64,000 nucleotides of DNA from assembly GCA_000092065.1 (NCBI GenBank), contig CP000583.1. One strand, written 5' to 3'. Source of the DNA: Ostreococcus lucimarinus. Its lineage: Eukaryota. Of this stretch, positions 2,919-29,440 are shown one piece after another. Both the position numbers and the translations under genes were made by a program. The notes beneath the pieces were generated by a model. The model saw only the letters and a list, made by a program, of their open reading frames with translations. It was not told where the DNA came from and searched no databases. How positions within the stretch are numbered: position 1 is the stretch's first letter; every line of letters begins with the position of its first letter.

Positions 2919-4166
2919 TTACTCCTCCTTCCTTGGGGGAAGAATGAATATGTTTGAGTGCATCCCGAGACATCCCGTGACTTGCGCGCAAAGCGTCGCG
3001 CTTCGGTGAAGCAACAAAAATAACGCGGCGCCGAGGAGGATGCCGCCGATGAACATGTTGCCCGCGGGCACAAATGTCGTCATGATCATGATGAACCCGC
3101 TCAACCAGTTGAACAGCGGCCAATCGGGGTCTGAAACGCGCAGGCGCATGATGCTCATCTCGGCTTCGGCGAAGAGAAGCATGCTCGTGGCGTGCGCCAA
3201 CGCCAAGTTTGGCGCAAAATACAAGCACACGCCGTGAAACAACTCGTTGACGATGCAAAACAACGCAATACGCGTCGGATTACGATGCTTTGGCCAGTGT
3301 GGTGGCACTTCTTTTGCCGTGACGGTGCGATAAAACGTCATCGCGCGAGATCGCACGCCGAACAACGCCCCGCCGTCGACGAGCAGGCGCACCACGCCTC
3401 GCTCGCCGATGATGGGTAGAGTGATCGTAAACGCATTCATCGCGTCGCTCCCAACGAATCCGAAGACAATCATACTTATTTGCAACAGGATCTGCATCTC
3501 TTGCACGTCAAAAGCGGTGTTCACAGGTAACAATCCCGTGTACGTGCTCGAAACCGTGTCGACGGCGAAAAAAATCCGGCTCGACGTCATCATCATCACC
3601 GCGAACGCTCTCGCCGCGGGCGTCGCGATACCGACGGCCAATAAATCAACGAAAATAATCCCGTACACGCACGTGCAAATCGCATCGCATCCGTGATCGA
3701 CGACTTCTCCCAACGGCGACCCGCTCTTCGTTCGTCTCGCTTGCTTACCGTCGATGCCGTCCGCCGTCTGATACGCAAACATTAAAACAGCGCTCACCGC
3801 GTACATCCACGACGGCGCGGTGTGCGCCAGCACTGGCGTGTGCGTCCAATACAACGCGTACGTCACCATCACCAACATTAATCCGCCGAACGTCAACGCG
3901 TTCGGCGCCACCCACAGCGGACACCACCGTTCGACGACGTACGTCCACCATCGCTCCAAAAACAGCTTCTCAAACGACGTCGACGGCGGTGATGTATACT
4001 TGTACGAGTGCACCTGCGCGCACGTGCGCTCGGACGCGCCCACGTGCGCGCGTTTCGCTTCGCGCTCATTTTTTTGGGCGTAGCACACCAAGTCCTCGTT
4101 CGACCCATCGTGTCCACCGCGCGTCAGCACATCGAGGCGCGCGCGTCGAACGGCGGCGATCGGCAT
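2919..4166 (-). CDS. CDP-alcohol phosphotransferase (choline/ethanolamine phosphotransferase, AAPT/CEPT-like)
   Basis: ATG at 4164-4166. Canonical CDP-alcohol phosphatidyltransferase motif DGIDGKQARRTKSGSPLGEVVDHGCDA (DG..AR....G..LD...D), with multiple transmembrane segments before and after. Confidence 0.85.
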   Translation of the reverse strand: MPIAAVRRARLDVLTRGGHDGSNEDLVCYAQKNEREAKRAHVGASERTCAQVHSYKYTSPPSTSFEKLFLERWWTYVVERWCPLWVAPNALTFGGLMLVMVTYALYWTHTPVLAHTAPSWMYAVSAVLMFAYQTADGIDGKQARRTKSGSPLGEVVDHGCDAICTCVYGIIFVDLLAVGIATPAARAFAVMMMTSSRIFFAVDTVSSTYTGLLPVNTAFDVQEMQILLQISMIVFGFVGSDAMNAFTITLPIIGERGVVRLLVDGGALFGVRSRAMTFYRTVTAKEVPPHWPKHRNPTRIALFCIVNELFHGVCLYFAPNLALAHATSMLLFAEAEMSIMRLRVSDPDWPLFNWLSGFIMIMTTFVPAGNMFIGGILLGAALFLLLHRSATLCAQVTGCLGMHSNIFILPPRKEE

Positions 4167-4330
4167 CGCGGCGGCTTTCGATCTTCGCGTCCGCGTCGCT
4201 TCGGGTCCGCGCGCGCGACGTCGGCGTCGTCTTCTGCCGTCGCGTTCGGCGGGACTCTCGTCGTTCCAGTGTCAACGAGATCTCATCGCGCGCCCTTCGT
4301 CCTCTGCGCGCGAATCCGGGACGCGGCGCG

Positions 4331-6244
4331 ATGGCAGGCGGTGTTGCGGTGGCGTCGGGAGAGATCCGGCACGGCGATAGGGTCTTCAGTGGGAACTCTG
4401 GCCCCGCGCAGCGCGAACAACCCATAAACAAAGAACTCATCGCGCACTTCAAAAGCAAGGGAGACAGTGTGTCCTGGGGCATCGCTGCAAGCATAGAGAA
4501 CTACGAGGAGGATACGAAGAGGCCAGTGTTGTCGGGCGCATGCATCGCGTCGCTCTACGACCAAGAGACCGAGCGCGAGTTGGCAGAGGAGGTGGAGAAC
4601 AGAATTGAGCGGGTGCTAAGCGACGACGCAGCCTTGTTGAAAATACGTCGATATTTGAAGACCTTCCACGCGGACGAGCGCGAATGGGATGTGAGAACGT
4701 GTGCAGCGGCGGCTCGAGGGGGCAACTTGGAGTGTTTGAAATATCTGCACGAGCACGGGTGCGCGTGGGATAAGAGTGCGTGTGAAGCGGCGGCTCAAGG
4801 TGACCACTTGGAGTGTTTGAAATATCTGCATGCGAACGGGTGCACATGCGATGAGAGTGCGTGTTTAGCAGCGGCTGAAGGTGGTCACTTGGAGTGTTTG
4901 AAATATCTGCACGAGCACGGGTACCCATGGAGTGAGTGGGTGAGTTTAGCAGCGGCCGAAGGCGGTCACTTGGAGTGTTTGAAATATCTGCACGAGCACG
5001 GGTGCGTATGGAATAAGAAAACGTGTCGAGCAGCGGCTCGAGGTGGCGACTTGGAGTGTTTGAAATATCTGCACGAGCACGGGTGCGCGTGGGATGAGAG
5101 TGCGTGTGAAGCGGCGGCTCGATGTGGTCATTTGGAGTGTTTGAAATATCTGCATGAGCACGGGTGCCCGTGCGATGAGAGTGCGTGTGAAGCGGCGGCT
5201 AGCTGTGGCGACTTGGAGTTTTTGAAAGACCTGCACGAGCACGGGTGCCCATGGGATGAGAGTGCGTGTGAAGCGGCGGCTCTAGGTGGTCACTTGGAGT
5301 GTTTGAAATATCTGCACGAGCACGGGTGCGTATGGAATAAGAAAACGTGTCGAGCAGCGGCTCGAGGTGGCGACTTGGAGTGTTTGAAATATCTGCACGA
5401 GCACGGGTGCGCGTGGGATAAGAGTGCGTGTTCTGCAGCGGCTGGACGCGGTCACTTGGAGTGTTTGAAATATCTGCACGAGCACGGGTACCCATGGAGT
5501 GAGTGGGTGAGTTTAGCAGCGGCCGAAGGCGGTCACTTGGAGTGTTTGAAATATCTGCACGAGCACGGGTGCGTATGGAATAAGAAAACGTGTCGAGCAG
5601 CGGCTCGAGGTGGCGACTTGGAGTGTTTGAAATATCTGCACGAGCACGGGTGCCCGTGCGATGAGAGTGCGTGTGAAGCGGCGGCTAGCTGTGGCGACTT
5701 GGAGTTTTTGAAAGACCTGCACGAGCACGGGTGCCCATGGGATGAGAGTGCGTGTGAAGCGGCGGCTCTAGGTGGTCACTTGGAGTGTTTGAAATATCTG
5801 CACGAGCACGGGTGCGTATGGAATAAGAAAACGTGTCGAGCAGCGGCTCGAGGTGGCGACTTGGAGTGTTTGAAATATCTGCACGAGCACGGGTGCCCGT
5901 GCGATGAGAGTGCGTGTGAAGCGGCGGCTAGCTGTGGCGACTTGGAGTGTTTGAAATATCTGCGCGAGCACGGGTGCCCGTGCGATGAGAGTGCGTGTGA
6001 AGCGGCGGCTCTAGGTGGTCACTTGGAGTTTTTGAAAGACCTGCATGAGCACGGGTGCGCATGGGATAAGAGTGCGTGTTCTGCAGCGGCTCGAGGTGGT
6101 CACTCGGAGTGCTTGAAGTACTTGCACACGCACGGGTGCCCCGGGAATAAGCGTGCGTCTGAAGCGGCGGCTGGAGGTGACGTCATGGAGTGTTTGAGTT
6201 TGAAGTACTTGCATAGATCGCTCAAACGAAAGATTTACAGGTAG
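4331..6244 (+). CDS. ankyrin-repeat protein with ~16 near-identical 33-aa repeats (HLECLKYLHEHGC[PAV]W[DN][EK]S.C.AAA.GG)
   Basis: The track ORF starts at 3989 with a non-ATG start inside the convergent CEPT gene; the first ATG is at 4331 (MAGGVAVASGE...). A unique ~125-aa N-terminus is followed by 33-aa ankyrin-like repeats encoded by 99-bp tandem units. Third-codon-position GC is only ~55%, against ~80% in neighbouring genes. Confidence 0.8.
   Translation: MAGGVAVASGEIRHGDRVFSGNSGPAQREQPINKELIAHFKSKGDSVSWGIAASIENYEEDTKRPVLSGACIASLYDQETERELAEEVENRIERVLSDDAALLKIRRYLKTFHADEREWDVRTCAAAARGGNLECLKYLHEHGCAWDKSACEAAAQGDHLECLKYLHANGCTCDESACLAAAEGGHLECLKYLHEHGYPWSEWVSLAAAEGGHLECLKYLHEHGCVWNKKTCRAAARGGDLECLKYLHEHGCAWDESACEAAARCGHLECLKYLHEHGCPCDESACEAAASCGDLEFLKDLHEHGCPWDESACEAAALGGHLECLKYLHEHGCVWNKKTCRAAARGGDLECLKYLHEHGCAWDKSACSAAAGRGHLECLKYLHEHGYPWSEWVSLAAAEGGHLECLKYLHEHGCVWNKKTCRAAARGGDLECLKYLHEHGCPCDESACEAAASCGDLEFLKDLHEHGCPWDESACEAAALGGHLECLKYLHEHGCVWNKKTCRAAARGGDLECLKYLHEHGCPCDESACEAAASCGDLECLKYLREHGCPCDESACEAAALGGHLEFLKDLHEHGCAWDKSACSAAARGGHSECLKYLHTHGCPGNKRASEAAAGGDVMECLSLKYLHRSLKRKIYR
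4700..6190. repeat. tandem array of ~99-bp units (about 15 copies, with near-identical higher-order ~300-550 bp blocks) inside the ankyrin CDS
   Basis: ggtcacttggagtgtttgaaatatctgcacgagcacgggtgc... recurs every 99 bp. Blocks around 4949-5240 are repeated almost exactly around 5489-5780. The short minus-strand ORFs (MLVQIFQTLQV...) here are repeat artefacts. Confidence 0.9.
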
Positions 6245-6267: not shown

Positions 6268-7593
6268 TCAAATACCTACGAAATCGGCGTACGCCGGACA
6301 GAGCCTACGACAGTGGCGAAATAAACGCATCGCTTCCATGGCGTCGCCCGAGGTCTCCGCGTCCACGGCGCGCTTGTGCAGGGCGTACGCCTCGGCGCCG
6401 ACGGCGTCGGCGAACGCCGGCGGCTCGCGAGCGTACATGACGTCGGTGCGAATGATGAATTTCACCGCGCCCTCGCCCACGGGCGCGCCCTCGTGCGGAA
6501 TGTCTTGTCGAAACACCAGAGCAGTGCCTCGCGCGCACGGCGCGGCGTCGGCGATCCATTCATCCGGCCAACGGTATCGATCGTCCTCGTCGCGCACGAA
6601 TTTCGACGGCTCAAAGTCGCTCGGCGGCGCGAACATCGACGTCTCCCCACCTCGCGCGCAATCGTTCAGGTACACCAAGACGCTATAAAACGAACGCGTA
6701 TTGAAATCTTCGATCGTCGCCCCGTCGGTGTGCGGTGAAAAGTGCCCGCGTCCAGAGTATCGATTAAACAACAAGTGTTCGTTCACGCCTCGCGCCACCC
6801 ATCGTCCGCGCGCCCCCGCGCCGTGCGTCTCATCCTCCTCAATCGTGATCTCCGGCGTCGCGTGCGGTTTCAATCGCGCCCACAGCGCTTCCGCGACCGT
6901 CTTCGACATCACCTCCACCGTATCCGCGTTCCTGAACGATTTTCTATTCCTCGCCTCCGCGTCCTCGTGCCAAAAGCTCAACCGTCCCGACCGCCGCGCG
7001 GCGTCCACCAGCCTTTCGCACTCCGTCGCCGTCAGCACGTCCCGCGCGACGAACGCATCGAGCGGGCTCGCGCACCTTCGCGCGCTCGTCGTCGCTTCGT
7101 CACCGCGTCGCTCGACCGCGTCGTCGAACGGTTTCGCGTCTTCGGCGCACGCCTTCTCCACGGGCGTCACCGCGCTCTTATCGACGTCCACGAACGCGCG
7201 CGACATCGCCTCGACGACGGCGTCGACGACGGTCGCGTCGCCGCCGCCGTCGTCGCCGCCGCGCGCGTCGACGCTCGACCGTTCGGTCGACCGTTCGCGG
7301 CGCGGCGCGGCGAGCTGTGCGGCACTGTCGAGCGCGATGGAACGCGTCGCGCGCGCGTCGTCGCGCGCGGCGACGGTCGGGGCGTCGCGTGCGGGGACGG
7401 GGAACGCGCGCGCGACGACGGCGTCGCGCGGCGCGCGCGCGACGACGGCGCGGCGCGCGCCGGCGGCGGCGTTTCTTTCGTCGGTGTCTCGAAAGTGTCG
7501 TCGCGGAAGGACGACGACGACGGGAGCGCTGGCGATTCCGGACACCGCGTTCACGGTGGCGACGATGGCGGTGATGCCGATGTACGCGCTCAT
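6268..7593 (-). CDS. 2-oxoglutarate/Fe(II)-dependent oxygenase (prolyl 4-hydroxylase-like)
   Basis: His-x-Asp...His iron triad and 2OG-binding basic residue: HFSPHTDGATIED, IPHEGAPVGEGAVKFIIRTDVMY. The true start may be the internal ATG at ~7203 (MSRAFVDVDKS...), which would remove the overlap with the divergent ABA4-like gene. Confidence 0.7.
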   Translation of the reverse strand: MSAYIGITAIVATVNAVSGIASAPVVVVLPRRHFRDTDERNAAAGARRAVVARAPRDAVVARAFPVPARDAPTVAARDDARATRSIALDSAAQLAAPRRERSTERSSVDARGGDDGGGDATVVDAVVEAMSRAFVDVDKSAVTPVEKACAEDAKPFDDAVERRGDEATTSARRCASPLDAFVARDVLTATECERLVDAARRSGRLSFWHEDAEARNRKSFRNADTVEVMSKTVAEALWARLKPHATPEITIEEDETHGAGARGRWVARGVNEHLLFNRYSGRGHFSPHTDGATIEDFNTRSFYSVLVYLNDCARGGETSMFAPPSDFEPSKFVRDEDDRYRWPDEWIADAAPCARGTALVFRQDIPHEGAPVGEGAVKFIIRTDVMYAREPPAFADAVGAEAYALHKRAVDAETSGDAMEAMRLFRHCRRLCPAYADFVGI

Positions 7594-8029
7594 GATCGCG
7601 AGCCCGCGGTCGAAGCGCGTGCTCGCGATGGTGGAGTCGAAGGCGTTGTTTTGGGTGCTCGGAGCGTGTTATCTGTGCGCGGCGGGGGCGTCGTTGGCCT
7701 CGGCGCACGTGTTCGACGCGGCGAGAGCGGTGCTGAATGATCGTTCAGCGCCTTTGGTGACGAAATTCGTGACGCTGGTGAGCGAATTCATGGCGACGTC
7801 GGAGACGGCGGCGAGCGCGTGGGTACACCTGTTGTCGTTGGATTTCTTCGTGGCGAGATTCGTGTACTTGGATTCGGCCAAGTATAGCTCGAGCGCGGGG
7901 GATTTGGTGGCGCGGATACCGGTACGGCACTCACTTATTTTGTGCTGCATGTTCGGACCGCTCGGGCTGATTTCGCACGCGCTGACGCGGGCAATTTGGA
8001 ACACGTACGTCGTCGTCGACGTGGTGTGA
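7337..8029 (+). CDS. ABA4-like / DUF4281 plastid membrane protein (neoxanthin-synthesis related)
   Basis: ATG at 7337 (MERVARASS... transit-peptide-like). C-terminal half MPMYALMIASPRSKR...WVHLLSLDFFVARFVY...RHSLILCCMFGPLGLISHALTRAIW aligns with Arabidopsis ABA4 (WIHLLVVDLFAARQVY...RHSVSLCLLFCPVGIVSH). Confidence 0.7.
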   Translation: MERVARASSRAATVGASRAGTGNARATTASRGARATTARRAPAAAFLSSVSRKCRRGRTTTTGALAIPDTAFTVATMAVMPMYALMIASPRSKRVLAMVESKALFWVLGACYLCAAGASLASAHVFDAARAVLNDRSAPLVTKFVTLVSEFMATSETAASAWVHLLSLDFFVARFVYLDSAKYSSSAGDLVARIPVRHSLILCCMFGPLGLISHALTRAIWNTYVVVDVV

Positions 8030-8104
8030 CGCGACGCCGACGACCGAAGATCGGAAGTTTGTCGAATGTATCAATACAAAAGAATGCTGTGATTTGAATT
8101 TGAA

Positions 8105-9625
8105 TTATTGCGCCTCCTCCGTAGCCTTGCGCTTGTTTGCCGCCGGCACGTTGATTTTGAACAACCCGGGATTAGCGGCGTGCGAGCTCTCGCCAGATTT
8201 GAAGTCTGCTTTCGCCGCCTTGACGAGCGCGTTGACGCGAGCGATGTAGTCGGGGATGCTAAACTTCTTCTTTGTGCTGTCGTACGCCATGTATCGAATC
8301 TTGCCGAAAACTTCGCGTTCTTTCCAACCTTGATCGTGCACGCCCACGATGGACCACATGCATCCGACGTAGCCGCTCGGATCGCGACCATCCAGCGAGT
8401 ACGTGTCGTTCAAATAAATTGCAAACTTCAACGCTTGCTCGGGCGACTCGGTCCACTCGAGAATCTTCTTCGCCCAATACATTCGACAAAAGCCGTGCAT
8501 CTTACCTCCATAACGCAACTCTCGCTGGGCGGCGTTCCACAGATCGTCGTGCGTCTTCGCCCGCTCGAGTTCTTCGAGCGAGTACAAGTACGGACGCTTG
8601 TCACTCGCATGCAGGCGAAGCGTGTCCTTGGCCCAGTCGTACTTTTGTCCCTCAATCTGATCGTACTTCGGGCTGTAGTAGCAAAAGTTGTCGGACAACT
8701 CTCGACGAACGACGAGCTCTTCGAAGAACGACTCATACGCGGGCGGCGACGCCTTTCCGACGGCTTTCTTTGCCTCGAGCGCGCATCGCTGACCAGAAAT
8801 CTGCCCAAAGTGCAGCCAAGGCGACAGCCCGCTCAGCGCCTGCGGCTTGGATGGATCGTTGCGCTTCTCGTACAACTTCATGCGTGAGTTCACAAAGTCG
8901 TCCAAAACAGCGTGCGCCGCGGTTTCGCCCGGGATCGCCCACGTCACTTCCGGCACCGCTTGCCCGCGCGACAGCGCCTCGGCGATGATGTCGTCCCACT
9001 TCACCGCGTCGAGCGCCGGGCCGCTGTACTTGGGCAAATCATCCGGCACTTCCGGGAATTCGTGCAAGAACTCCGGGTAACGCTTCGCCAAGCGCCCTCG
9101 AAGCGTCCGCGCGCCGACTTCGAGCTTGTCGCTCGCTTCCCAGCACGGCACTACGTTGTGCGCGTCGCATTCCTCGCAGTGCGCCGAGCGCGCCTCGCAC
9201 AATGCCGCCAGTTCTTTCCGCCATTTCAACCCATCGCGAAGCGGCGAAAAGTCGCACACGATCGTTTTCGCACCAATCTTCTTGGCCAGCGCATCGATCG
9301 CGATCGCTGGCTCATCCCCGTACGTCATCGCGAACGTCACGTTTTTCGCCTTCGCCGCGCCCTCCAGCTCGCGAAGTCCACGCAGCATGAACCCGAACTG
9401 TCGCGCCCCCGCGCCGAGGAACTTTGTCAGCAGATTAAACGCGATCACCACCGGCGCGTCGTTCGCGCGCGCGACGTCGCACGCGCGCAGCAGCGCCCAG
9501 TTATCTCGCACGCGTTGGTCCCTGGACAGCCAGTACACGACTGGCGCGTTCGGTCCCGCCTCGGGCTTCGTCCCGCGCGTCAGCGCGCGATAGCGCTTCT
9601 TCGACGCGCACAACGCCGACGGCAT
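8105..9625 (-). CDS. class II CPD DNA photolyase
   Basis: The track's M1 is GTG; the ATG is at 9623-9625 (MPSALCASKKRY). Class II hallmark VVYWLSRDQRVRDNWAL, FAD-binding C-terminal domain (GKMHGFCRMYWAKKILEW, YVGCMWSI). Confidence 0.9.
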   Translation of the reverse strand: MPSALCASKKRYRALTRGTKPEAGPNAPVVYWLSRDQRVRDNWALLRACDVARANDAPVVIAFNLLTKFLGAGARQFGFMLRGLRELEGAAKAKNVTFAMTYGDEPAIAIDALAKKIGAKTIVCDFSPLRDGLKWRKELAALCEARSAHCEECDAHNVVPCWEASDKLEVGARTLRGRLAKRYPEFLHEFPEVPDDLPKYSGPALDAVKWDDIIAEALSRGQAVPEVTWAIPGETAAHAVLDDFVNSRMKLYEKRNDPSKPQALSGLSPWLHFGQISGQRCALEAKKAVGKASPPAYESFFEELVVRRELSDNFCYYSPKYDQIEGQKYDWAKDTLRLHASDKRPYLYSLEELERAKTHDDLWNAAQRELRYGGKMHGFCRMYWAKKILEWTESPEQALKFAIYLNDTYSLDGRDPSGYVGCMWSIVGVHDQGWKEREVFGKIRYMAYDSTKKKFSIPDYIARVNALVKAAKADFKSGESSHAANPGLFKINVPAANKRKATEEAQ

Positions 9626-9713
9626 CGCGCGCTCGAGCGTCGGCGCGCGCGCGAGGACTCGGCGTCGAGTTTTGACGCGCGCGGGCGACGTCACTCAACG
9701 CCGCGTCGCGCGC

Positions 9714-11594
9714 ATGTCGCGCGCGTTCGACGCGTGCGAGCGCGCGCGCGCGATCGCGACCGCGTCGAACGCGCCATGCGATCGGCGCGCGTCGCACCGC
9801 GCGCGCGTCGCGTCGCACCGCGCGGCGACGACGTCGCGAGACGCGGATAAAGGCGCGGAAAAGTTTGTGCCGGGGACGCTCGGATGGGGACGACGACGCG
9901 GGTCGATCGATCCGCGCGTCGATGGCGACGTGCTGGAGGACGCGCGCGCGCATGGGTACTGCGTGTACACGCACGCCGACTGGGCGCACGCGTACGTGAG
10001 CGCGGACGGTGAACACGCGTACGAGAGCGCGTGCGCGTTCGGCGCGGCGCCGGAGGAGCTGCGCGGCGGCACGCTGTATCGCATCGGACCCGGGTTGTTT
10101 GAGCGCGAGAAGGAGTACGCGCACATGCTCGACGGTGATGGTCTAGCGCTGCGATTCAGGTTTTCTTCAGATGGCGCGTCGGTGGCGTTTACGTCGCGAT
10201 TCGTTCGCACGCGCGAGTTCGCCGAGGAAGACGCCGCGGGCAAGGTGTTGTATCGAGGAACGTTCGGGACCATGCGAGAAGGAGGGATGTTGAATAATGC
10301 GTTCGATTTACACACGAAAAATTTAGCGAATACGAATATCGTGCGATGGGGCGGTCGCGTGCTCGCGTTGTACGAAGCAGGTCAGCCCGTGGAAGTGGAC
10401 GCGGAGACGCTCGCTACAAAGGGCGTGGACGATTTAGGCGGTCGACTCGAGCCGGGACAGTACTTCACGCTCGGGTTACCGGAACCCATCGGATCGACGA
10501 TCGAACGCTCTGCTGGACTTGGGGGGCGGGCGTTCACCGCACACCCGCACATTGACTCCAACACCGGATACTTGGTCGGTTGGGGATGGAAATCTCGCAT
10601 CACCGCCAAGGCGGTGGAGATTTCGCTGTGGGAGTGGGATGAAGATTGGCGCGAGATGGGAAGACGCGACTACGTTATGGAGGGCTGCGAGGCCGCGCCG
10701 CACGATTTCGGTGTGACAGAAAAGTGGTACGTGATGATTCAAAATCGACTCGGCATCGATCCTCTACCGTTTCTCGTCGGGGCCAAGGGCGCGGGTGAGT
10801 GCCTGATTTCGCAGCCGCAAGAACCACTCCTCGTGCACTTGATCCCGCGCTCGACGCAGACGCCGAATGTGGCGAAACCGGTGGAACCCGTGATCGCCGA
10901 AGGGCCTCGAGAATCGTTCGAGATACACGTGGCGCTCGCGCACGACGGGCCACCTTTGAGCCGCGGCGAGACGACGTCGGAAGATCTCGAGAACTGGGTC
11001 ACCGTGTACACCGCGGGCTGGGACAAGCTTTCTCCTGGTGTGTTCCTCGGCGAGTGGGGCTCAAGCGACCCTTGGCCGTTTCCAGTGCCCACGGAGTTGA
11101 GTCCAGACTTTAACAACATCCCGAGAACGCTGTTGTGGATGTATGAAATCAACGCCGTCACCGGGGAAGTGAAGCGTCAACCGGCGCCAGGTTGCGAAGA
11201 TTTGTGCATCGACCATCCGCACGTGTCGCCGTTATTCGAGGGCAAGCGCGCGTGTCGGTACGTGTACGCTTCGTTGAGTAACGAAGTTCGCGTCAGCGGA
11301 CCGCCGCTTGGTTACGTGCGCATCGACCTAAAGACGGGCGAATTGCAAAAGTGGTACGCGAGCAACCGAAGCTTTTGCGAAGAACCAGTCATCGTGCCGA
11401 AAGCGAACGGCGCAAACGAAGACGATGCGTGGTTGATCGGGCTGATCGCGGACCATTCGCGGGAGAACCCAGCTGGGATTTCACGAGTCGTCGTTCTTGA
11501 CTGCGCCGACATAGCCGCGGGCCCGGTGTGTAGCATTCCTCTGCGCAATAGAATCCCACACGGGCTGCATGGAATGTTTGTCGGTCGAGAATGA
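9714..11594 (+). CDS. carotenoid cleavage dioxygenase (RPE65/CCD family)
   Basis: ATG at 9714. The four conserved Fe-ligand His regions of carotenoid oxygenases are present (AHPHIDSNTGYL, APHDFGVTEKWYV, VHLIPR, IPHGLHGMFV), plus a transit-peptide-like N-terminus. Confidence 0.85.
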   Translation: MSRAFDACERARAIATASNAPCDRRASHRARVASHRAATTSRDADKGAEKFVPGTLGWGRRRGSIDPRVDGDVLEDARAHGYCVYTHADWAHAYVSADGEHAYESACAFGAAPEELRGGTLYRIGPGLFEREKEYAHMLDGDGLALRFRFSSDGASVAFTSRFVRTREFAEEDAAGKVLYRGTFGTMREGGMLNNAFDLHTKNLANTNIVRWGGRVLALYEAGQPVEVDAETLATKGVDDLGGRLEPGQYFTLGLPEPIGSTIERSAGLGGRAFTAHPHIDSNTGYLVGWGWKSRITAKAVEISLWEWDEDWREMGRRDYVMEGCEAAPHDFGVTEKWYVMIQNRLGIDPLPFLVGAKGAGECLISQPQEPLLVHLIPRSTQTPNVAKPVEPVIAEGPRESFEIHVALAHDGPPLSRGETTSEDLENWVTVYTAGWDKLSPGVFLGEWGSSDPWPFPVPTELSPDFNNIPRTLLWMYEINAVTGEVKRQPAPGCEDLCIDHPHVSPLFEGKRACRYVYASLSNEVRVSGPPLGYVRIDLKTGELQKWYASNRSFCEEPVIVPKANGANEDDAWLIGLIADHSRENPAGISRVVVLDCADIAAGPVCSIPLRNRIPHGLHGMFVGRE

Positions 11595-11689
11595 AAAGAC
11601 GCCTGAATGAAAAGACGCCTACAGTAAAATTGTACTTTGTAACAAAATGTTTGCTTGCGTTCGCGTAAGTTTTGGTTTTACAACATTGT

Positions 11690-13285
11690 TCACGTGTGAA
11701 GCTCGACCGCGATCTGCTCCAATGACTTGCCTTTTGTCTCCACGACGTATGCTTGAGTGAAAAAGAACCCAAACATCGAAAACGCCGCGAAAAACATGTA
11801 CACGACGCTAGCGCCGAAGTACTCCACCGCCGGTAAAAATCCCTGTCCAATGCAGAAGTTGAAGATCCAGTGCGCGAGAAAGCACAAAGACATCCCCTTC
11901 CCGCGCACGGCCGGAGCGAAAATCTCCGAAGATAGCAGACCCGGAACTGGACCGGCGCCCATGCCGAAGATGAAGACGTACGAGAGGACGGAAAACAGCG
12001 ACAGCGCGGGCGCCATGACCATCGCTGGAAACGCGCCCGCGATGGCCAAACCGACGCAACTTACCGCCATACCGAGGAAAGAGTACATGAGAAGCGGTTT
12101 ACGACCCGTTTTATCGAGTAAACCGGTAGCGATGACGCTGCCTACGATGTTCACCACGCACACCGCGACGGAGGCGAGTACGCCAGATTCGATCCCGGCG
12201 CTTTGGAAGATGGCCGTGCTGAAGTAGATGATGGCGTTGATGCCGGCAAATTGTTGAATGAAGAACAGCATCGGCCCCGTAATCACGGCTCGACGATTCG
12301 AGCGCCCTTGCAGAGTCTCTTGCCACGTCGCCACCTTGGTCGATCCCATGTCGTCGGCGCGCTTCGGCGCCACGGCTCCGAATTGCTTAGACTCCACCGC
12401 GTCCGCCTCTTGAAAGTGCCCTTTGGAGCGCAACCACGACGGACTTTCCGGGATTCCGTTCGCGAGCGTCGCGAGCGCGACCGCGGGAACGGTGGCGAGC
12501 CAGAACATCGTGCGCCACCACGCGGGATCGACGTCGACGCCTTGCAAAGGCAAACCGAGAAACATGGCGACCAAAATCCCAAATCCGATGGACAGTTGCG
12601 GCCCCGATCCCAGCACCCCACGGTGCTCGGGCGGACTCAGTTCGCTCACGTACATGGGCACCAAAATCGACACCAATCCGACGCCCACGCCCACGATCGC
12701 GCGTCCGGCGAGCATCGTCCGCAGCGTCGTCGCCGCCGCGCACGCCGCGCTTCCCAGCGCCAGCGCGACGCCCGCCAGCGCCAGCGACTTTTTCCGTCCA
12801 AATTTATCCGCCGACGCCCCCGCGGCGAACGACCCGAACGCCGCGCCCATGAGCATGCTCGACACCACCGCTCCTTTCGCCGCGACGTCTCGCGCGATGC
12901 CGATATCGCTCGCCAGCGCCTCCAGCGCCGGATTCACGACGCCGCAGTGATACCCAAACGAAAACGCCCCGAGTGCGGCGACGGCGACCGGGAACGCCGC
13001 GCGCCGCAGCGCCTGCGACGCGCTCAGCGGTTTCGCGAGCAATCCATCGCCATCGCGCGCGTCCTCGTCGCGCGTCGCGCGCGCGCGCGGCATCGCACCG
13101 CGCGTCCCGCGGACCGACGCGTTCGCGCGCGCGTCGCTCGAGTTCGCGCGCGGCGCGATGCGCATGCGCGACGCGCGCGCGCGCGCGACGACGGGACGCG
13201 AGACGCGCGCGCGATGCCGCGATCGGCGCGCGCGCGCGTCGACGCGCGCGCGCGACGACGACGCCGCCGACGACGACGCGCGCAT
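11690..13285 (-). CDS. MFS sugar porter (plastidic glucose/hexose transporter-like)
   Basis: 12-TM MFS with sugar-porter signatures (GRKKSLALAGVAL, VPMYVSELSPPEHRG, FQQFAGINAIIYFST) and a long R/A/S-rich N-terminus. ATG at 13283-13285; internal ATGs at ~13165 and ~13093 are alternatives. Confidence 0.85.
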   Translation of the reverse strand: MRASSSAASSSRARVDARARRSRHRARVSRPVVARARASRMRIAPRANSSDARANASVRGTRGAMPRARATRDEDARDGDGLLAKPLSASQALRRAAFPVAVAALGAFSFGYHCGVVNPALEALASDIGIARDVAAKGAVVSSMLMGAAFGSFAAGASADKFGRKKSLALAGVALALGSAACAAATTLRTMLAGRAIVGVGVGLVSILVPMYVSELSPPEHRGVLGSGPQLSIGFGILVAMFLGLPLQGVDVDPAWWRTMFWLATVPAVALATLANGIPESPSWLRSKGHFQEADAVESKQFGAVAPKRADDMGSTKVATWQETLQGRSNRRAVITGPMLFFIQQFAGINAIIYFSTAIFQSAGIESGVLASVAVCVVNIVGSVIATGLLDKTGRKPLLMYSFLGMAVSCVGLAIAGAFPAMVMAPALSLFSVLSYVFIFGMGAGPVPGLLSSEIFAPAVRGKGMSLCFLAHWIFNFCIGQGFLPAVEYFGASVVYMFFAAFSMFGFFFTQAYVVETKGKSLEQIAVELHT

Positions 13286-13328: not shown

Positions 13329-13933
13329 ATGTGGCGTCGCGTCGCGCGCGACGTCGCGAGACGCGCGTCGACGTCGTGCGCGACGTCGTCGTCCGCGCGC
13401 GCGACGGGCGCGACGCGGGGCGTGAGCGCGACGGCGACGTCGAGGGCGAAGGCGAAGGCGAAGGCGAAGGCGAAGGGTAAAGGTGCGTCGAGCGCGGACC
13501 GACGCGCGAGGACGCGCGCGAAGACGCGAGGACGCGCGCGAGGACGCGCGGGATGACGCGCGGGATGACGCGCGCGACGCGCGACTGACGGAGCGACGGC
13601 GGTGTCGAACGACGCGCAGACGGTGAGAAGGCGCAGACGGCGGCGAGCGGCGGCGGCGGCGCGGCGAGCGACACGAAAGTCGTAGGGTTGAATTACTTGA
13701 AAACGGGAAGTGATCCGGAACTCGGGAGCGATGATGCGTATCCGGCGTGGTTGTGGACGCTGTCGGAGGCGAAGGAAAGTTTGGGAGGGTACGAGCGGAG
13801 GATCGCGGCGTTGAAGGCGGAGGGCTTGGATTGGCGCGCAGAGTTTTCGGAGGAGGACGCGAAACGGTATCGGAAACTCGAACGGACGCATCGGATCAGG
13901 GAAAATAACGCGTCGCGCGCGAAGAAATAGCAA
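13329..13933 (+). CDS. MRPL54: mitochondrial ribosomal protein mL54 (two exons: 13329..13482 and 13620..13933)
   Basis: Exon 2 encodes YPAWLWTLSEAKESLGGYERRIAALKAEGLDWRAEFSEEDAKRYRKLERTHRIRENN (mL54 motif YPEWLF...R.YWR.LR). It is not preceded by an in-frame ATG; there is an in-frame TGA at 13586. Exon 1 (MWRRVARDVARRAST...KAKAKGK, mitochondrial presequence) ends with donor GTGCGT at 13483. Branch CTGAC lies 33 nt upstream of acceptor CGCGCAG at 13619. The phase-1 junction recreates an Asp codon. Confidence 0.7.
13483..13619 (+). other. spliceosomal intron (137 nt) of the mL54 gene
   Basis: GTGCGT...CTGAC...CGCGCAG. The interior is built from degenerate GACGCGCG(A/G)G tandem motifs. Confidence 0.65.
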
Positions 13934-13976
13934 TGTTTTGATTATACCGGTATCGTTTGAGCTCGTCGATGCGTGT

Positions 13977-14681
13977 TCACGCGGCGGCGGCGACGGATTC
14001 GGCGGCGGCATCTTCCACGCGCGCGTCCTTCAACCGCGTGGCGTTTTCTTGAACCATCTTCTCCCACTTCAGTTTGTCGTACTCCTCGGGGCTTAAAAAG
14101 TCCGGGTCGGCGTACGAGCGCCAACTCCACATGTGACACTCGCAGCAAATCGTCTCTGACTCAAACTTTTTCTTGCCTCGACACCACGTCTGCGAAAAAT
14201 GATGCTCCTTCGTGTTCGTGGACCCGCACGACAGGCAGTCGGGGAAGCGTTCGTTCGGTTTCCATCGCGAGATCCATTCGTCTACGGTCATAATTTTCAT
14301 CCCAGCTCCGACCGAGGGGTTGATTTCAACGGGGTCGCCTGCGCGCGCAAGCCGGTCAGTCAGCCGTCCCGTCGCGAACGTCGTCGTCGTCGAGGAAGGT
14401 CGCGCGCAAGCTTCTTCATCGAGCGTCGTACCGTTCATGATCTTGCGCCACTCCGTGGCGTGCACGAGTGCCTTCGGATTTGCGTTCACGTCGGTGTAGA
14501 TGTCCGTCTTCAGATCGTCCGCGTACGCGTGCGTCATGTCTTTTTCTTCCTCCTCCTTGGTCGTCGACTTGTCGACATCTTTGGCCCCTCCGGTCGCGCC
14601 GGTCGCGTCTTTGGCCTTGGACGACGCCGCAGCCGACTTCCCGGGCTTCTTCTTACCAGTCTTTTTCGATTTTGGAGGCAT
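13977..14681 (-). CDS. hypothetical Lys-rich protein with C-terminal Cys/His-rich domain
   Basis: First ATG is MPPKSKKTGKKKPGKS (~14681); the track M1 is GTG. C-terminal CLSCGS...HHFSQTWCRGKKKFESETICCECHMWSW is a possible zinc-binding module. No family assigned. Confidence 0.45.
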   Translation of the reverse strand: MPPKSKKTGKKKPGKSAAASSKAKDATGATGGAKDVDKSTTKEEEEKDMTHAYADDLKTDIYTDVNANPKALVHATEWRKIMNGTTLDEEACARPSSTTTTFATGRLTDRLARAGDPVEINPSVGAGMKIMTVDEWISRWKPNERFPDCLSCGSTNTKEHHFSQTWCRGKKKFESETICCECHMWSWRSYADPDFLSPEEYDKLKWEKMVQENATRLKDARVEDAAAESVAAAA

Positions 14682-14816
14682 CGCGACGAGAGACGCGCGC
14701 GCGTGAGTGCGGCGATCTCGAAATGTCCGCGAGAAAAACGCTCGCACCAGCCGTTTTTCACTTCGCTAATAAAATAAATCAAATCACACAGCTACGACCG
14801 AACGAGTCTCACTCGT

Positions 14817-27177: not shown

Positions 27178-27798
27178 CTATTCTGTCGTCTTCGCTCTGC
27201 GCCATCGCGCGTCTAACGCGTCGATCGCGCACGACATTTTCGCCTTCCCGAGCTTCTCGTTCACGACGTTGTGTCGCTCGCACACCCACTTCGCCAGCGC
27301 CTCGCGCGATTCGCACCTCGGCGGGTGCGCGTCGACGTCGGCTCGCAAATCCGCCCTGCACGTCGCGCACGGGTACAGGTCTCCCAGCGCGTCGAAGAAC
27401 CGTCGCGCTTGCACGCGCTGCGCGTGCGTCGGTTTTTGTGGGTAATACGCCGCGATCGTGTGCATCAGCGCCCACGACGCGCGTCCCAGTTCGTCGACGT
27501 CCAGCGGCGCCGCCGTCCCCGTCCCGGCGCCTTCGTCGGCGTTCGCGTCGTCGGCGTTCGTTCGCGTCGTCGACGCGTCGCGGTGCGTCGCTTTTCGCAC
27601 GGCGTCGAACAGATCGCGTCGCTTTTCGCACGCCCCGTCGTCGCACGTCGTCGACATCGTCGTATCGTCGGTGAATGCGCCGACGAATGGACGCGTCGCC
27701 GCATTCATCGCCGCATTCGTCGACGCATTCATCGAGTCCCGGAATCGCGCGCGCGTTCGCACGCGCGCGACGCTCCGCGGTCGGCGACGCGCGGACAT
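27178..27798 (-). CDS. ERV1: Erv1/ALR-family FAD-linked sulfhydryl oxidase
   Basis: LGRASWALMHTIAAYYP, redox-active YPCATCRADL, WVCERHNVVNEKLGK. The first ATG (27796-27798) overlaps the ATG of the divergent RCC1 gene; internal ATGs at ~27732 and ~27657 are alternative starts. Confidence 0.85.
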   Translation of the reverse strand: MSARRRPRSVARVRTRARFRDSMNASTNAAMNAATRPFVGAFTDDTTMSTTCDDGACEKRRDLFDAVRKATHRDASTTRTNADDANADEGAGTGTAAPLDVDELGRASWALMHTIAAYYPQKPTHAQRVQARRFFDALGDLYPCATCRADLRADVDAHPPRCESREALAKWVCERHNVVNEKLGKAKMSCAIDALDARWRRAKTTE

Positions 27799-29440
27799 GT
27801 CGAAGCGCCATCGCGCGAGTGGCGACGGCGCCGCGTCGCGCTCGAGCGACGACGACGACGACGACGCGGTGACGATCGGGTACCGACGCGCGCCGACGAA
27901 CGATCGCGACGCGCTCTGCGCCGCGCACGTCGAGGCGCTGAACGCGCAGTTCGCGCGACACGTCGCGAAGAAGACGCGCGATGCGCCGCGGGAGTTTCTC
28001 GTCCAGGCGTGTCGGGATTACGTGACGTACGCGAACGCGATACGGAAGGAGTTTCGAGACGCGGCGGGCGCGGGCGCGGCGGCGGACGAGGCGAAACGCG
28101 GCGAAGCGAGCGCGAGCGGGGAGGCGTACGTGTGGGGACAGGGAGACAGCGCGCAACTCGGGTTGGGTGGAGACGTGGACGAGCGACGACGACCGACGCG
28201 CGTGACGACGGGCGCGATGGGGGAGGCGAGAGCGACGCGGATCGCGGCGGGCGGGACGCACACGTTGGCGTTGACGAGCGACGGCGCGTGTTACAGTTGG
28301 GGGAACAACGATAACGGTGCGCTCGGACGAGTAGTGAATAAAGACGCAGATCCGGACGCGGAGTACGCGCCGGGAAAGGTCGAGCTTCCTCTGGACGTCA
28401 AGGTGGTGATGGTGAGCACCGGCGACTCGCACGGGTGCGCGTTGACGGAGAGCGGCGAGGTGTGGGCGTGGGGGCAGTTTCGAACGACGAACGGGGCGTG
28501 GGCGTTCAACCCGAACACCCTGGACGCGCAAAAGACGTCGTTTCCATTTAAAATATACGCGCCAGCGTCGTCGAAGGAGCGCGCGAAGGCGATCGTGAGC
28601 GGCGTCGACCACGTGTTGGCGCTCTCGCGCGAGGGCGGCGTGTACTCTTGGGGATGTAGCGAGAAGGGCCGTCTCGGTAGAGTCGACGCGAGCGAGGCCG
28701 AGGACAACGAACAGGCGAGCGATGATGTGAAAAGACGATTGCTCACCCCTAGTCGCGTGGCGTTGCCGAAGAGTGGCGGAGGTATCGGATCCGCGTTTGG
28801 CGGCGAACCGGAAGTCACCGCCATCGTCGCCGGCGATTTCCATTCGTTTGCCATTTGCGCCGACGAAGACGGCTCGAAATCGGACGTCTACGGCTGGGGT
28901 TTGTCAAACTTCCACCAAGTCGGGTTGTGGGACCCCAATCCTGACTTGCGCGGGGACGAACAGGTGACGTACTTTCCGAAACGAGTTGCCTCGTTGTGCG
29001 GAAAATGCATCGTCGCGGGCGACGCCGGCGCGCACCACTCGCTATTCTTAACGGGCGACGGTAAAATCATCGCCATCGGGCGATATACCGACGGTCGATG
29101 CGGCGTTCGCGTTCCCAACGCCGCGCTCGACGGCGCGTTGGAAGAGCCTAGAGTCATCGAGGATTTGCCCGGTCGCGCGGTGAAGGTGGCGAGCGGCGAC
29201 ACGTGCGGCGGCGCCATCATGGAGGATGGTTCCGCCTACGTCTGGGGATCGCAGTACATCGGACAGCTCGGACTTGGTCCGCGGGAAGAGGATGCGTACA
29301 CGCCAGAGAAGATGCCGTACACGAAACCGATGGCTGGCAAGGTGTTCGCCGAGCTTTCTTTCGGCGGTCAGCACGCCGCGGCGCTGTTGATCGACGCCAA
29401 GGACGACAAACCCGCGAGCAAGCGAGCTCGAGGGGCGTAG
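27797..29440 (+). CDS. RCC1-repeat (beta-propeller) protein
   Basis: ATG at 27797 (MSKRHRASGDG...DDDDDD). Seven RCC1 blades with YVWGQGDSAQLGLG, GGTHTLALTSDGACYSWGNNDNGALGR, GDSHGCALTESGEVWAWG, GVDHVLALSREGGVYSWG, AGDFHSFAIC, GAHHSLFLTGDGKIIAIG, SGDTCGGAIMEDGSAYVWGSQYIGQLG. Confidence 0.8.
   Translation: MSKRHRASGDGAASRSSDDDDDDAVTIGYRRAPTNDRDALCAAHVEALNAQFARHVAKKTRDAPREFLVQACRDYVTYANAIRKEFRDAAGAGAAADEAKRGEASASGEAYVWGQGDSAQLGLGGDVDERRRPTRVTTGAMGEARATRIAAGGTHTLALTSDGACYSWGNNDNGALGRVVNKDADPDAEYAPGKVELPLDVKVVMVSTGDSHGCALTESGEVWAWGQFRTTNGAWAFNPNTLDAQKTSFPFKIYAPASSKERAKAIVSGVDHVLALSREGGVYSWGCSEKGRLGRVDASEAEDNEQASDDVKRRLLTPSRVALPKSGGGIGSAFGGEPEVTAIVAGDFHSFAICADEDGSKSDVYGWGLSNFHQVGLWDPNPDLRGDEQVTYFPKRVASLCGKCIVAGDAGAHHSLFLTGDGKIIAIGRYTDGRCGVRVPNAALDGALEEPRVIEDLPGRAVKVASGDTCGGAIMEDGSAYVWGSQYIGQLGLGPREEDAYTPEKMPYTKPMAGKVFAELSFGGQHAAALLIDAKDDKPASKRARGA

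Follow-up and report, generated by a model that had tools for sequence, protein, structure and literature searches.

We analyzed a stretch of 64,000 nucleotides from the picoalga Ostreococcus lucimarinus (GenBank assembly GCA_000092065.1, contig CP000583.1), which we refer to as the window. Positions 6268-11594 contain four uninterrupted single open reading frames (ORFs), arranged as two divergent pairs. In the first pair, a 2-oxoglutarate (2OG)-Fe(II) oxygenase gene (- strand) lies head-to-head with a gene for an ABA4-like protein (+ strand). In the second pair, a class II cyclobutane pyrimidine dimer (CPD) photolyase gene (- strand) lies head-to-head with a gene for a carotenoid cleavage oxygenase (CCD, + strand), and this second pair, together with the spacer inside it, is our main subject. 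The ABA4-like and photolyase genes are convergent, with no common promoter. The 90%-identity cluster of the CCD includes XP_001416800.1 of Ostreococcus lucimarinus CCE9901, which fits the GC content of 62% and bears out an earlier placement in the Mamiellophyceae. Based on Pfam, the flanking genes encode a CDP-alcohol phosphatidyltransferase, an ankyrin-repeat ORF and a sugar/MFS transporter. A first-pass annotation had proposed the identities and coordinates of the four genes, and ORF analysis, Pfam and NCBIfam TIGR00591 bear these out (Table 1). It had also interpreted the four genes as a co-localized, light-responsive module in which ABA4 supplies neoxanthin to an NCED-type CCD, and most of this interpretation does not hold, as explained below.

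Table 1. Genes and spacers at positions 6268-11594 of the window
Feature	Coordinates	Strand	Evidence
2OG-Fe(II) oxygenase, P4H-like fold, C-terminal helical hairpin	6268..7209	-	Pfam PF13640, orthologue alignment, AlphaFold model
Spacer between 2OG oxygenase and ABA4-like gene, 124 bp	7210..7333	.	Start codons inferred from orthologue alignments
ABA4-like/DUF4281 membrane protein, R/S/T/A-rich N-terminal extension	7334..8029	+	Pfam PF14108, 100%-identical gene call P0160
Class II CPD photolyase, 506 aa from ATG 9625	8105..9625	-	Pfam PF00875, NCBIfam TIGR00591
Photolyase/CCD spacer, 88 bp	9626..9713	.	Direct sequence reading
ACO-type carotenoid cleavage oxygenase, 626 aa	9714..11594	+	Pfam PF03055, best PDB match 2biw

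The 2OG oxygenase ORF is open upstream as far as 7593 (6268-7593, - strand), where an ATG is present. Because its orthologues, which are 320-380 amino acids long, start just ahead of a conserved FVDVD block, we set the start codon at 7209 and not at this ATG. The ABA4-like ORF spans 6701-8029 (+ strand), and its start was set at 7334 because an independent 230-amino-acid gene call, P0160, is 100% identical. Both of these start codons rest on orthologue alignments; codon-position GC gave no decision between an N-terminal extension of the 2OG oxygenase and the overlapping transit-peptide frame of the ABA4-like gene. The photolyase ORF (8105-9694, - strand) is open to a GTG at 9694 and likely begins with the ATG at 9625, and the CCD ORF (9672-11594, + strand) likely begins with the ATG at 9714. 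We note that prokaryote-style gene callers lengthen the 2OG and CCD genes too far. Gene call P0177 (441 amino acids) corresponds to the 2OG ORF run through the N terminus of the ABA4-like gene on the opposite strand, and P0001 (640 amino acids) is the CCD begun at a TTG at 9672, within the photolyase/CCD spacer.

With these start codons, the start-to-start distances are 124 bp for the 2OG/ABA4-like pair and 88 bp for the photolyase/CCD pair, which agrees with earlier estimates of about 130 bp or less and under 100 bp. The first-pass annotation took such short distances as a sign of shared regulation. However, when the genes of the 64-kb window are roughly mapped, 12 of the 41 neighbor pairs turn out to be divergent, and the median distance between their ATGs is 110 bp. 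Since head-to-head spacing of roughly 100 bp is the default state in this map, it is not special, and the short distances reflect a genome norm. More generally, head-to-head neighbors with spacers below 130 bp should be regarded as the default in genomes this dense.

The CCD matches the RPE65/CCD family (PF03055) with 287 bits against a cutoff of 27 (E-value 3.4e-85, profile positions 13-468 of 469). Its class was judged by comparison with PDB sequences, among which plant CCD7 and CCD8 have no entry. In this comparison, the top match by about 160 bits is the Synechocystis apocarotenoid-15,15'-oxygenase (ACO; 2biw), with 241 bits and an E-value of 2.6e-70, and the alignment is strong across the N-terminal half. 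Stilbene and lignostilbene oxygenases score 66-82 bits, a 9,10-dioxygenase about 49 bits and RPE65 33 bits. Maize VP14, an NCED (3npe), reaches 50 bits with an alignment at the C terminus only. The nearest CCD relatives beyond the prasinophytes are ACO-named proteins with about 30% identity, and the name given by JGI to relatives of the CCD is all-trans-8'-apo-beta-carotenal 15,15'-oxygenase.

The ACO of Synechocystis sp. PCC 6803, also called Diox1, is thus by far the nearest solved relative of the CCD, and the four iron-binding histidine positions are present in the algal protein: H277 (AHPH), H330 (PHDF), H405 (FEIHVA) and H619 (LHG). This set is conserved throughout the algal clade, and H277, H330 and H619 align with bacterial ACO-like sequences. 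The third histidine lies in a shifted motif that reads FEIHVAFAHD in place of the usual HHANAF-type motif. The algal CCD is also longer than the Synechocystis enzyme (626 versus 490 amino acids); it is extended at the N terminus by about 80 residues and contains internal insertions. An “APCO”-type CCD was described in O. tauri by Cui et al. 2012 (PMC3299332), and it may be an orthologue. Some members of a related CCD cluster, of the lineage represented by locus L008, are labeled “[bacterium]”, e.g., MDC1215499.1. These are algal contigs that were binned into bacterial metagenome-assembled genomes.

By sequence similarity, the CCD is therefore ACO-type and not NCED-type, and the 241 bits to ACO versus the 50 bits to VP14 speak against an NCED identity. 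Since the CCD is ACO-type, the logic leading from ABA4 to an NCED fails. Given its similarity to the Synechocystis enzyme, the most likely reaction of the CCD is cleavage of apocarotenals at the 15,15' bond, with retinal as the product. NCED-like cleavage of 9-cis-epoxy-xanthophylls is not expected of such a protein.

The photolyase ORF (8105-9694, - strand) matches the DNA_photolyase family (PF00875) with an E-value of 1.2e-32. The TIGR00591 (phr2) model assigns it to class II, with 576.2 bits against a cutoff of 550.05 and a match to profile positions 4-452 of 453, while models for class I photolyases, 8-HDF photolyases, plant cryptochromes and DASH proteins score merely 21-41 bits. A separate observation concerns the class II photolyases outside of Ostreococcus, which end in a C-terminal TFIIS/Med26 helical bundle (PF08711, E-values of 6e-11 to 8e-8). 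Examples are found in loci L008 (7896-9833, - strand), L010 (8161-9954, - strand), L055 (3744-5537, - strand) and L050 (3571-5385, - strand); the photolyase at 8105-9625 has no PF08711 domain. This fusion, which joins a photolyase with a domain that docks to the transcription-elongation machinery, may merit separate attention.

We next consider the first pair of genes. The last 145 residues of the ABA4-like protein match PF14108 over the entire profile (positions 1-127 of 127) with 98.7 bits against a cutoff of 27 (E-value 4.3e-28), and the protein is a genuine member of this family. Alignment reveals an N-terminal extension rich in R, S, T and A in all ABA4-like orthologues, and this extension resembles a transit peptide. 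Thus, to judge from its sequence, the protein is probably targeted to the plastid. An indexed protein search with the ABA4-like query returned Ostreococcus-like proteins only, and an exhaustive profile search yielded 490 family representatives at E-values up to 1e-3, all listed without names. Ten of these representatives were looked up, of which one had an informative name, a DUF4281 protein of Tetraselmis; the other named ones are called “hypothetical protein”. A role of the ABA4-like protein in neoxanthin formation would follow solely by analogy with plant ABA4.

The ORF of the 2OG oxygenase (6268-7593, - strand) matches 2OG-FeII_Oxy_3 (PF13640) with an E-value of 2.9e-8, and there is a weak PhyH match besides. 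Residues H160, D162, H239 and K250 are invariant in an alignment of 20 homologues. The protein has the HxD...H iron triad, the basic 2OG-binding residue and the double-stranded beta-helix fold of oxygenases resembling prolyl 4-hydroxylases (P4Hs). In a phmmer search against PDB sequences, no match to the 2OG oxygenase was found at an E-value of 1 or below. An AlphaFold model (pLDDT 91.6) has as its best PDB neighbors the Chlamydomonas enzyme Cr-P4H-1 (2jig/3gze), a bacterial EF-Tu P4H (4iw3) and PHD2, with Foldseek E-values of 5.6e-10 to 1e-6 and target-normalized TM scores of about 0.6. However, the identity to these P4Hs is only 13-17%, and the 2OG oxygenase has an additional C-terminal helical hairpin. 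This hairpin is common to the 20 homologues, which range from algae to Leishmania.

Full-length homologues of the 2OG oxygenase occur in the choanoflagellate Salpingoeca rosetta (45% identity) and in Leishmania martiniquensis (37%). A function as an enzyme of the carotenoid pathway was considered and rejected, because of these homologues and the P4H-like fold: the distribution of the family is not limited to organisms that make carotenoids. Based on the modeled fold and the non-photosynthetic homologues, the substrate is most likely a protein. Several metagenomic homologues of the 2OG oxygenase bear the JGI name “leukotriene-A4 hydrolase”. In locus L013, a real LTA4H gene (10001-13206; Peptidase_M1 and Leuk-A4-hydro_C domains) is located directly downstream of the 2OG gene, and the label probably stems from fused or adjacent gene calls.

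The earlier interpretation predicted that the order of the four genes would be conserved in other Mamiellophyceae. We gathered contigs bearing orthologues by exact protein look-up, and a metagenome scan with the CCD alignment gave 80 more loci. These loci were analyzed by tblastn, a neighbor-joining tree and ORF-level blastp. The counts that follow refer to contigs, many of which belong to one species, and they are hence not independent. The photolyase-CCD pair is present in all 30 evaluable Ostreococcus-like loci, in which the CCD is 63-100% identical, and those loci with sufficient upstream sequence also hold the ABA4-like and 2OG genes. In the same loci, however, unrelated flanking genes are equally collinear, namely those for the CDP-OH transferase, the sugar transporter, ribosomal protein L37 and a signal peptide peptidase. 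Therefore, the four-gene order represents collinearity at the level of the genus. Among the loci collected, the four genes are found together solely in Ostreococcus-like loci, and the block is split or missing in loci L008/L010, L011, L012, L013, L015, L017 and L019. The predicted conservation thus extends only to Ostreococcus-like contigs.

Outside of Ostreococcus, the two pairs lead separate lives. In L013 and L014 (GC content 61%, 2OG oxygenase 50% identical), the divergent 2OG/ABA4 pair is kept, and Sugar_tr and VPS13 genes are nearby. In these loci, a Rad9 gene is found at the place where the photolyase and CCD would be expected. The spacer between the 2OG and ABA4-like genes varies from 47 to 400 bp in relatives. 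We call another set of loci Bathycoccus-like, based on their GC content of 46% and an SBPase cluster that names B. prasinos. In one of these (L015), the 2OG gene lies beside AAA_18 and BUD22 genes in the absence of an ABA4-like gene, with the L37 gene and its neighbor close by.

The photolyase/CCD pair, for its part, is retained in divergent orientation in 13 high-GC loci that do not belong to Ostreococcus (CCD 48-59% and photolyase 58-64% identical). All 13 share one other context, in which the pair is situated between Tim17 and LeuCD genes on one side and a gene for a leucine-rich repeat (LRR) protein on the other (Tim17-LeuCD-[pair]-LRR). Thus, the same divergent orientation occurs in two genomic contexts, this one and that of Ostreococcus (ABA4...Sugar_tr). 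Locus L050 has a CCD resembling clade A within the photolyase context, and this arrangement favors orthology of the high-GC CCD clades followed by one translocation. Movement of the photolyase-CCD pair as one unit would be the simplest reading. Because the pairs occur in separate contexts elsewhere, the four-gene block can be described as two older and independent head-to-head pairs that have come to lie side by side in Ostreococcus only, and each pair is also broken in some lineages. The proposed co-localized module accordingly does not stand as a unit of four genes, but the part of it that consists of the divergent photolyase-CCD pair recurs in both contexts.

The spacer between the photolyase and CCD genes contains the sequence GACGTCAC at positions 9687-9694, 19 bp upstream of the CCD ATG. 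This is an ACGT-core element of the C-box/CRE-like type. ACGT-core boxes are the classical binding sites of plant bZIP proteins such as HY5. Corresponding spacers in Ostreococcus measure 34-100 bp and, apart from this element, are poorly alignable, with a mean column identity of 47%. Nevertheless, six of the seven Ostreococcus lineages compared have (C)TGACGTCA(C/T) at a distance of 3-37 bp upstream from the predicted start of the CCD, and the seventh has TGACGACAC instead. With 0.18-0.30 occurrences of (C)TGACGTCA(C/T) per kb of these sequences, about 0.02-0.03 matches are expected per spacer.

When 12 further divergent spacers of the window were checked, none contained TGACGT or ACGTCA, and no such element was found in the 2OG/ABA4 spacer (7210-7333). 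Across the window, the GACGTCAC 8-mer is not enriched (7 found versus 6.6 expected), and no window-wide enrichment of TGACGTCA was found. In the absence of such enrichment, it is the positional conservation alone that is informative. The photolyase-CCD spacers from outside of Ostreococcus have one ACGT-core box each (CACGTCA, CACGTG or TGACGTG). We regard the conserved element as a lead to shared control, and not as a demonstration of it.

Our favored explanation is that the photolyase and the ACO-type CCD are divergently co-transcribed under light control, and we assign to this explanation, which derives from sequence comparisons, a probability of roughly 0.45. Under this explanation, both genes would be transcribed from one short common control region, which would be switched on by light or at dawn via a bZIP factor of the HY5 type that binds the ACGT box. 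Any retinal made by the CCD could feed the modular rhodopsins of the alga. Alternatively, the CCD could clear apocarotenals that result from photo-oxidative stress. Modular rhodopsins were reported in O. lucimarinus (PMC7693036). In O. tauri, photoprotection and DNA-repair genes are diurnally co-regulated (PMC2850359), and there are putative HY5/HYH orthologues that peak at dawn (PMC5508029); the putative OtHY5 bears the identifier ostta03g00340. A broader version of this explanation posits an ancient bidirectional unit of the Mamiellales that is subject to light control through the ACGT box, couples photorepair to retinal production or apocarotenal clearance, and moved as one piece. We consider this broader version unlikely, although not strikingly so.

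Several observations weigh against light co-regulation of the pair. In Bathycoccus-like loci, the CCD lies opposite a ribosome-biogenesis gene, and the photolyase is missing in 16 evaluable loci. Similarly, no photolyase accompanies the CCD in 11 high-GC loci of another CCD clade or in Pseudoscourfieldia marina. The ACGT-core boxes in the spacers from outside of Ostreococcus are about as frequent as expected by chance (0.6-3 per kb over 300-600 bp), and an element located 3-37 bp from the CCD ATG could be a feature of the 5′ untranslated region or core promoter of the CCD alone. As to expression, no data for the photolyase and the CCD were found in the literature searched, and the supplements of the O. 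tauri diel array study (Monnier 2010) contain one unidentified KOG1285 CCD (cluster 76) and no class II photolyase. As plant CCD7 and CCD8 lack PDB entries, the CCD could also be close to these. Finally, genes with no evident functional link also stay adjacent in these genomes, and such conservation is not rare: the gene for ribosomal protein L37 and its unannotated neighbor (13977-14747, 61% identity), located at 13688-14747 of the window, are also adjacent in the Bathycoccus-like locus L015 (13270-14385).

Nearly as likely as light co-regulation is that the four genes are neutral neighbors, coupled neither functionally nor transcriptionally, given that close neighbors are universal in a dense genome. 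Divergent pairs would then outlast other pairs since a breakpoint in a very short shared spacer harms both promoters. Divergent pairs with very short spacers are indeed expected to withstand breakage, and the conservation of the photolyase-CCD pair thus carries some, but not much, weight. The neutral reading fits well with the frequency and median gap of divergent pairs in the window, the breakage of both pairs in several lineages, the likewise conserved but unrelated L37 adjacency in Bathycoccus, the chance frequency of the GACGTCAC 8-mer across the window, and the fact that evidence for co-expression was not found in the literature searched. It fits less well with the fact that six of the seven Ostreococcus lineages have kept (C)TGACGTCA(C/T) in the corresponding position, despite the remaining spacer being unalignable and the expectation being far below one match. 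Also against it is that photolyase-CCD is the sole adjacency common to the Ostreococcus and Tim17-LeuCD/LRR contexts.

The other explanations involve the ABA4-like gene. That the locus is a light-responsive module in which ABA4 leads to an NCED-like CCD and the 2OG oxygenase modifies the product now seems highly improbable, even though the ABA4-like protein truly belongs to PF14108 and has an N terminus like that of a transit peptide, the catalytic histidine set of the CCD is intact, and every Ostreococcus-like contig examined has the four genes side by side. Against this stand the ACO-type identity of the CCD, the P4H-like fold of the 2OG oxygenase and the presence of its family in choanoflagellates and kinetoplastids. 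In addition, all four genes co-occur only in loci whose entire region is collinear, their pairs are separate in other lineages, and the convergent ABA4-like and photolyase genes do not share a promoter. A looser link would be that the turnover of plastid carotenoids involves both the ABA4-like protein and the ACO-type CCD, such that their proximity was selected in Ostreococcus without forming a pathway like that of abscisic acid; for example, the CCD might trim apocarotenals derived from xanthophylls. Both proteins have N-terminal extensions compatible with plastid targeting, and both families are tied to carotenoids, as judged by Pfam names and the similarity to ACO. However, the two genes are not neighbors in any locus fetched from outside of Ostreococcus, the photolyase gene lies between them so that there is no shared promoter, and the searches did not establish the ABA4-like protein as an orthologue of plant ABA4. 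We therefore regard this link as improbable too, if less so than the module.

All four genes are ordinary members of known families, and their arrangement can be compared with known systems. The plant route from ABA4 to NCED (Arabidopsis ABA4; maize VP14, 3npe) also involves a PF14108 protein and a CCD-family enzyme. However, the Ostreococcus CCD reaches only 50 bits with VP14, promoters are not shared, and the proximity of the genes is confined to Ostreococcus. This case illustrates that a functional story based on Pfam names, here that ABA4 and a CCD imply a pathway like that of abscisic acid, can fail at the level of subfamilies.

Light-induced sets of photolyase and carotenoid or retinal genes exist in other organisms, such as the fungal carX-carRA-carB-carO cluster and White-Collar regulons, and the bacterial LitR/CarH regulons. 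Light co-regulation of the Ostreococcus photolyase and CCD would resemble these sets in placing photorepair and a carotenoid/retinal enzyme under one light control. It would differ from them in consisting of a two-gene divergent pair in a green alga, with a candidate element of the plant bZIP (C-box) type. A divergent photolyase/ACO pair in prasinophytes would be new among such light-controlled sets. If the shared light-responsive promoter is real, it would provide a compact and testable case of bidirectional light control in a transformable picoalga, and would point to an enzyme that makes retinal for green-algal modular rhodopsins. In the literature searched, we found no account of the retinal-forming step for these rhodopsins.

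We now note properties of neighboring genes in the window. An RCC1-repeat gene (27797-29440, + strand), located 16 kb downstream of the four-gene block, was considered as a UV-B receptor of the UVR8 type. This candidate was rejected, as the encoded protein scores 193 bits with RCC1 versus 151 bits with UVR8, and is thus nearer to RCC1, the Ran guanine nucleotide exchange factor.

The ankyrin-repeat ORF (3989-6244, + strand) contains an 81-bp unit that is tandemly repeated 18.7 times with 81% matches. It has a strong GC skew (+0.24), and its GC content at third codon positions is atypically low (0.62). This ORF lies between the CDP-OH transferase and 2OG genes only in contigs of the O. lucimarinus type (L021/L022, 84-86% identity, which indicates that the array varies). 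Other Ostreococcus clades (L002, L004, L006) have no such ORF there. Similar ankyrin ORFs adjoin the CCD in L010/L086/L099 and in L008. The ORF at 3989-6244 resembles a recently inserted member of a repeat-gene family that is expanding.

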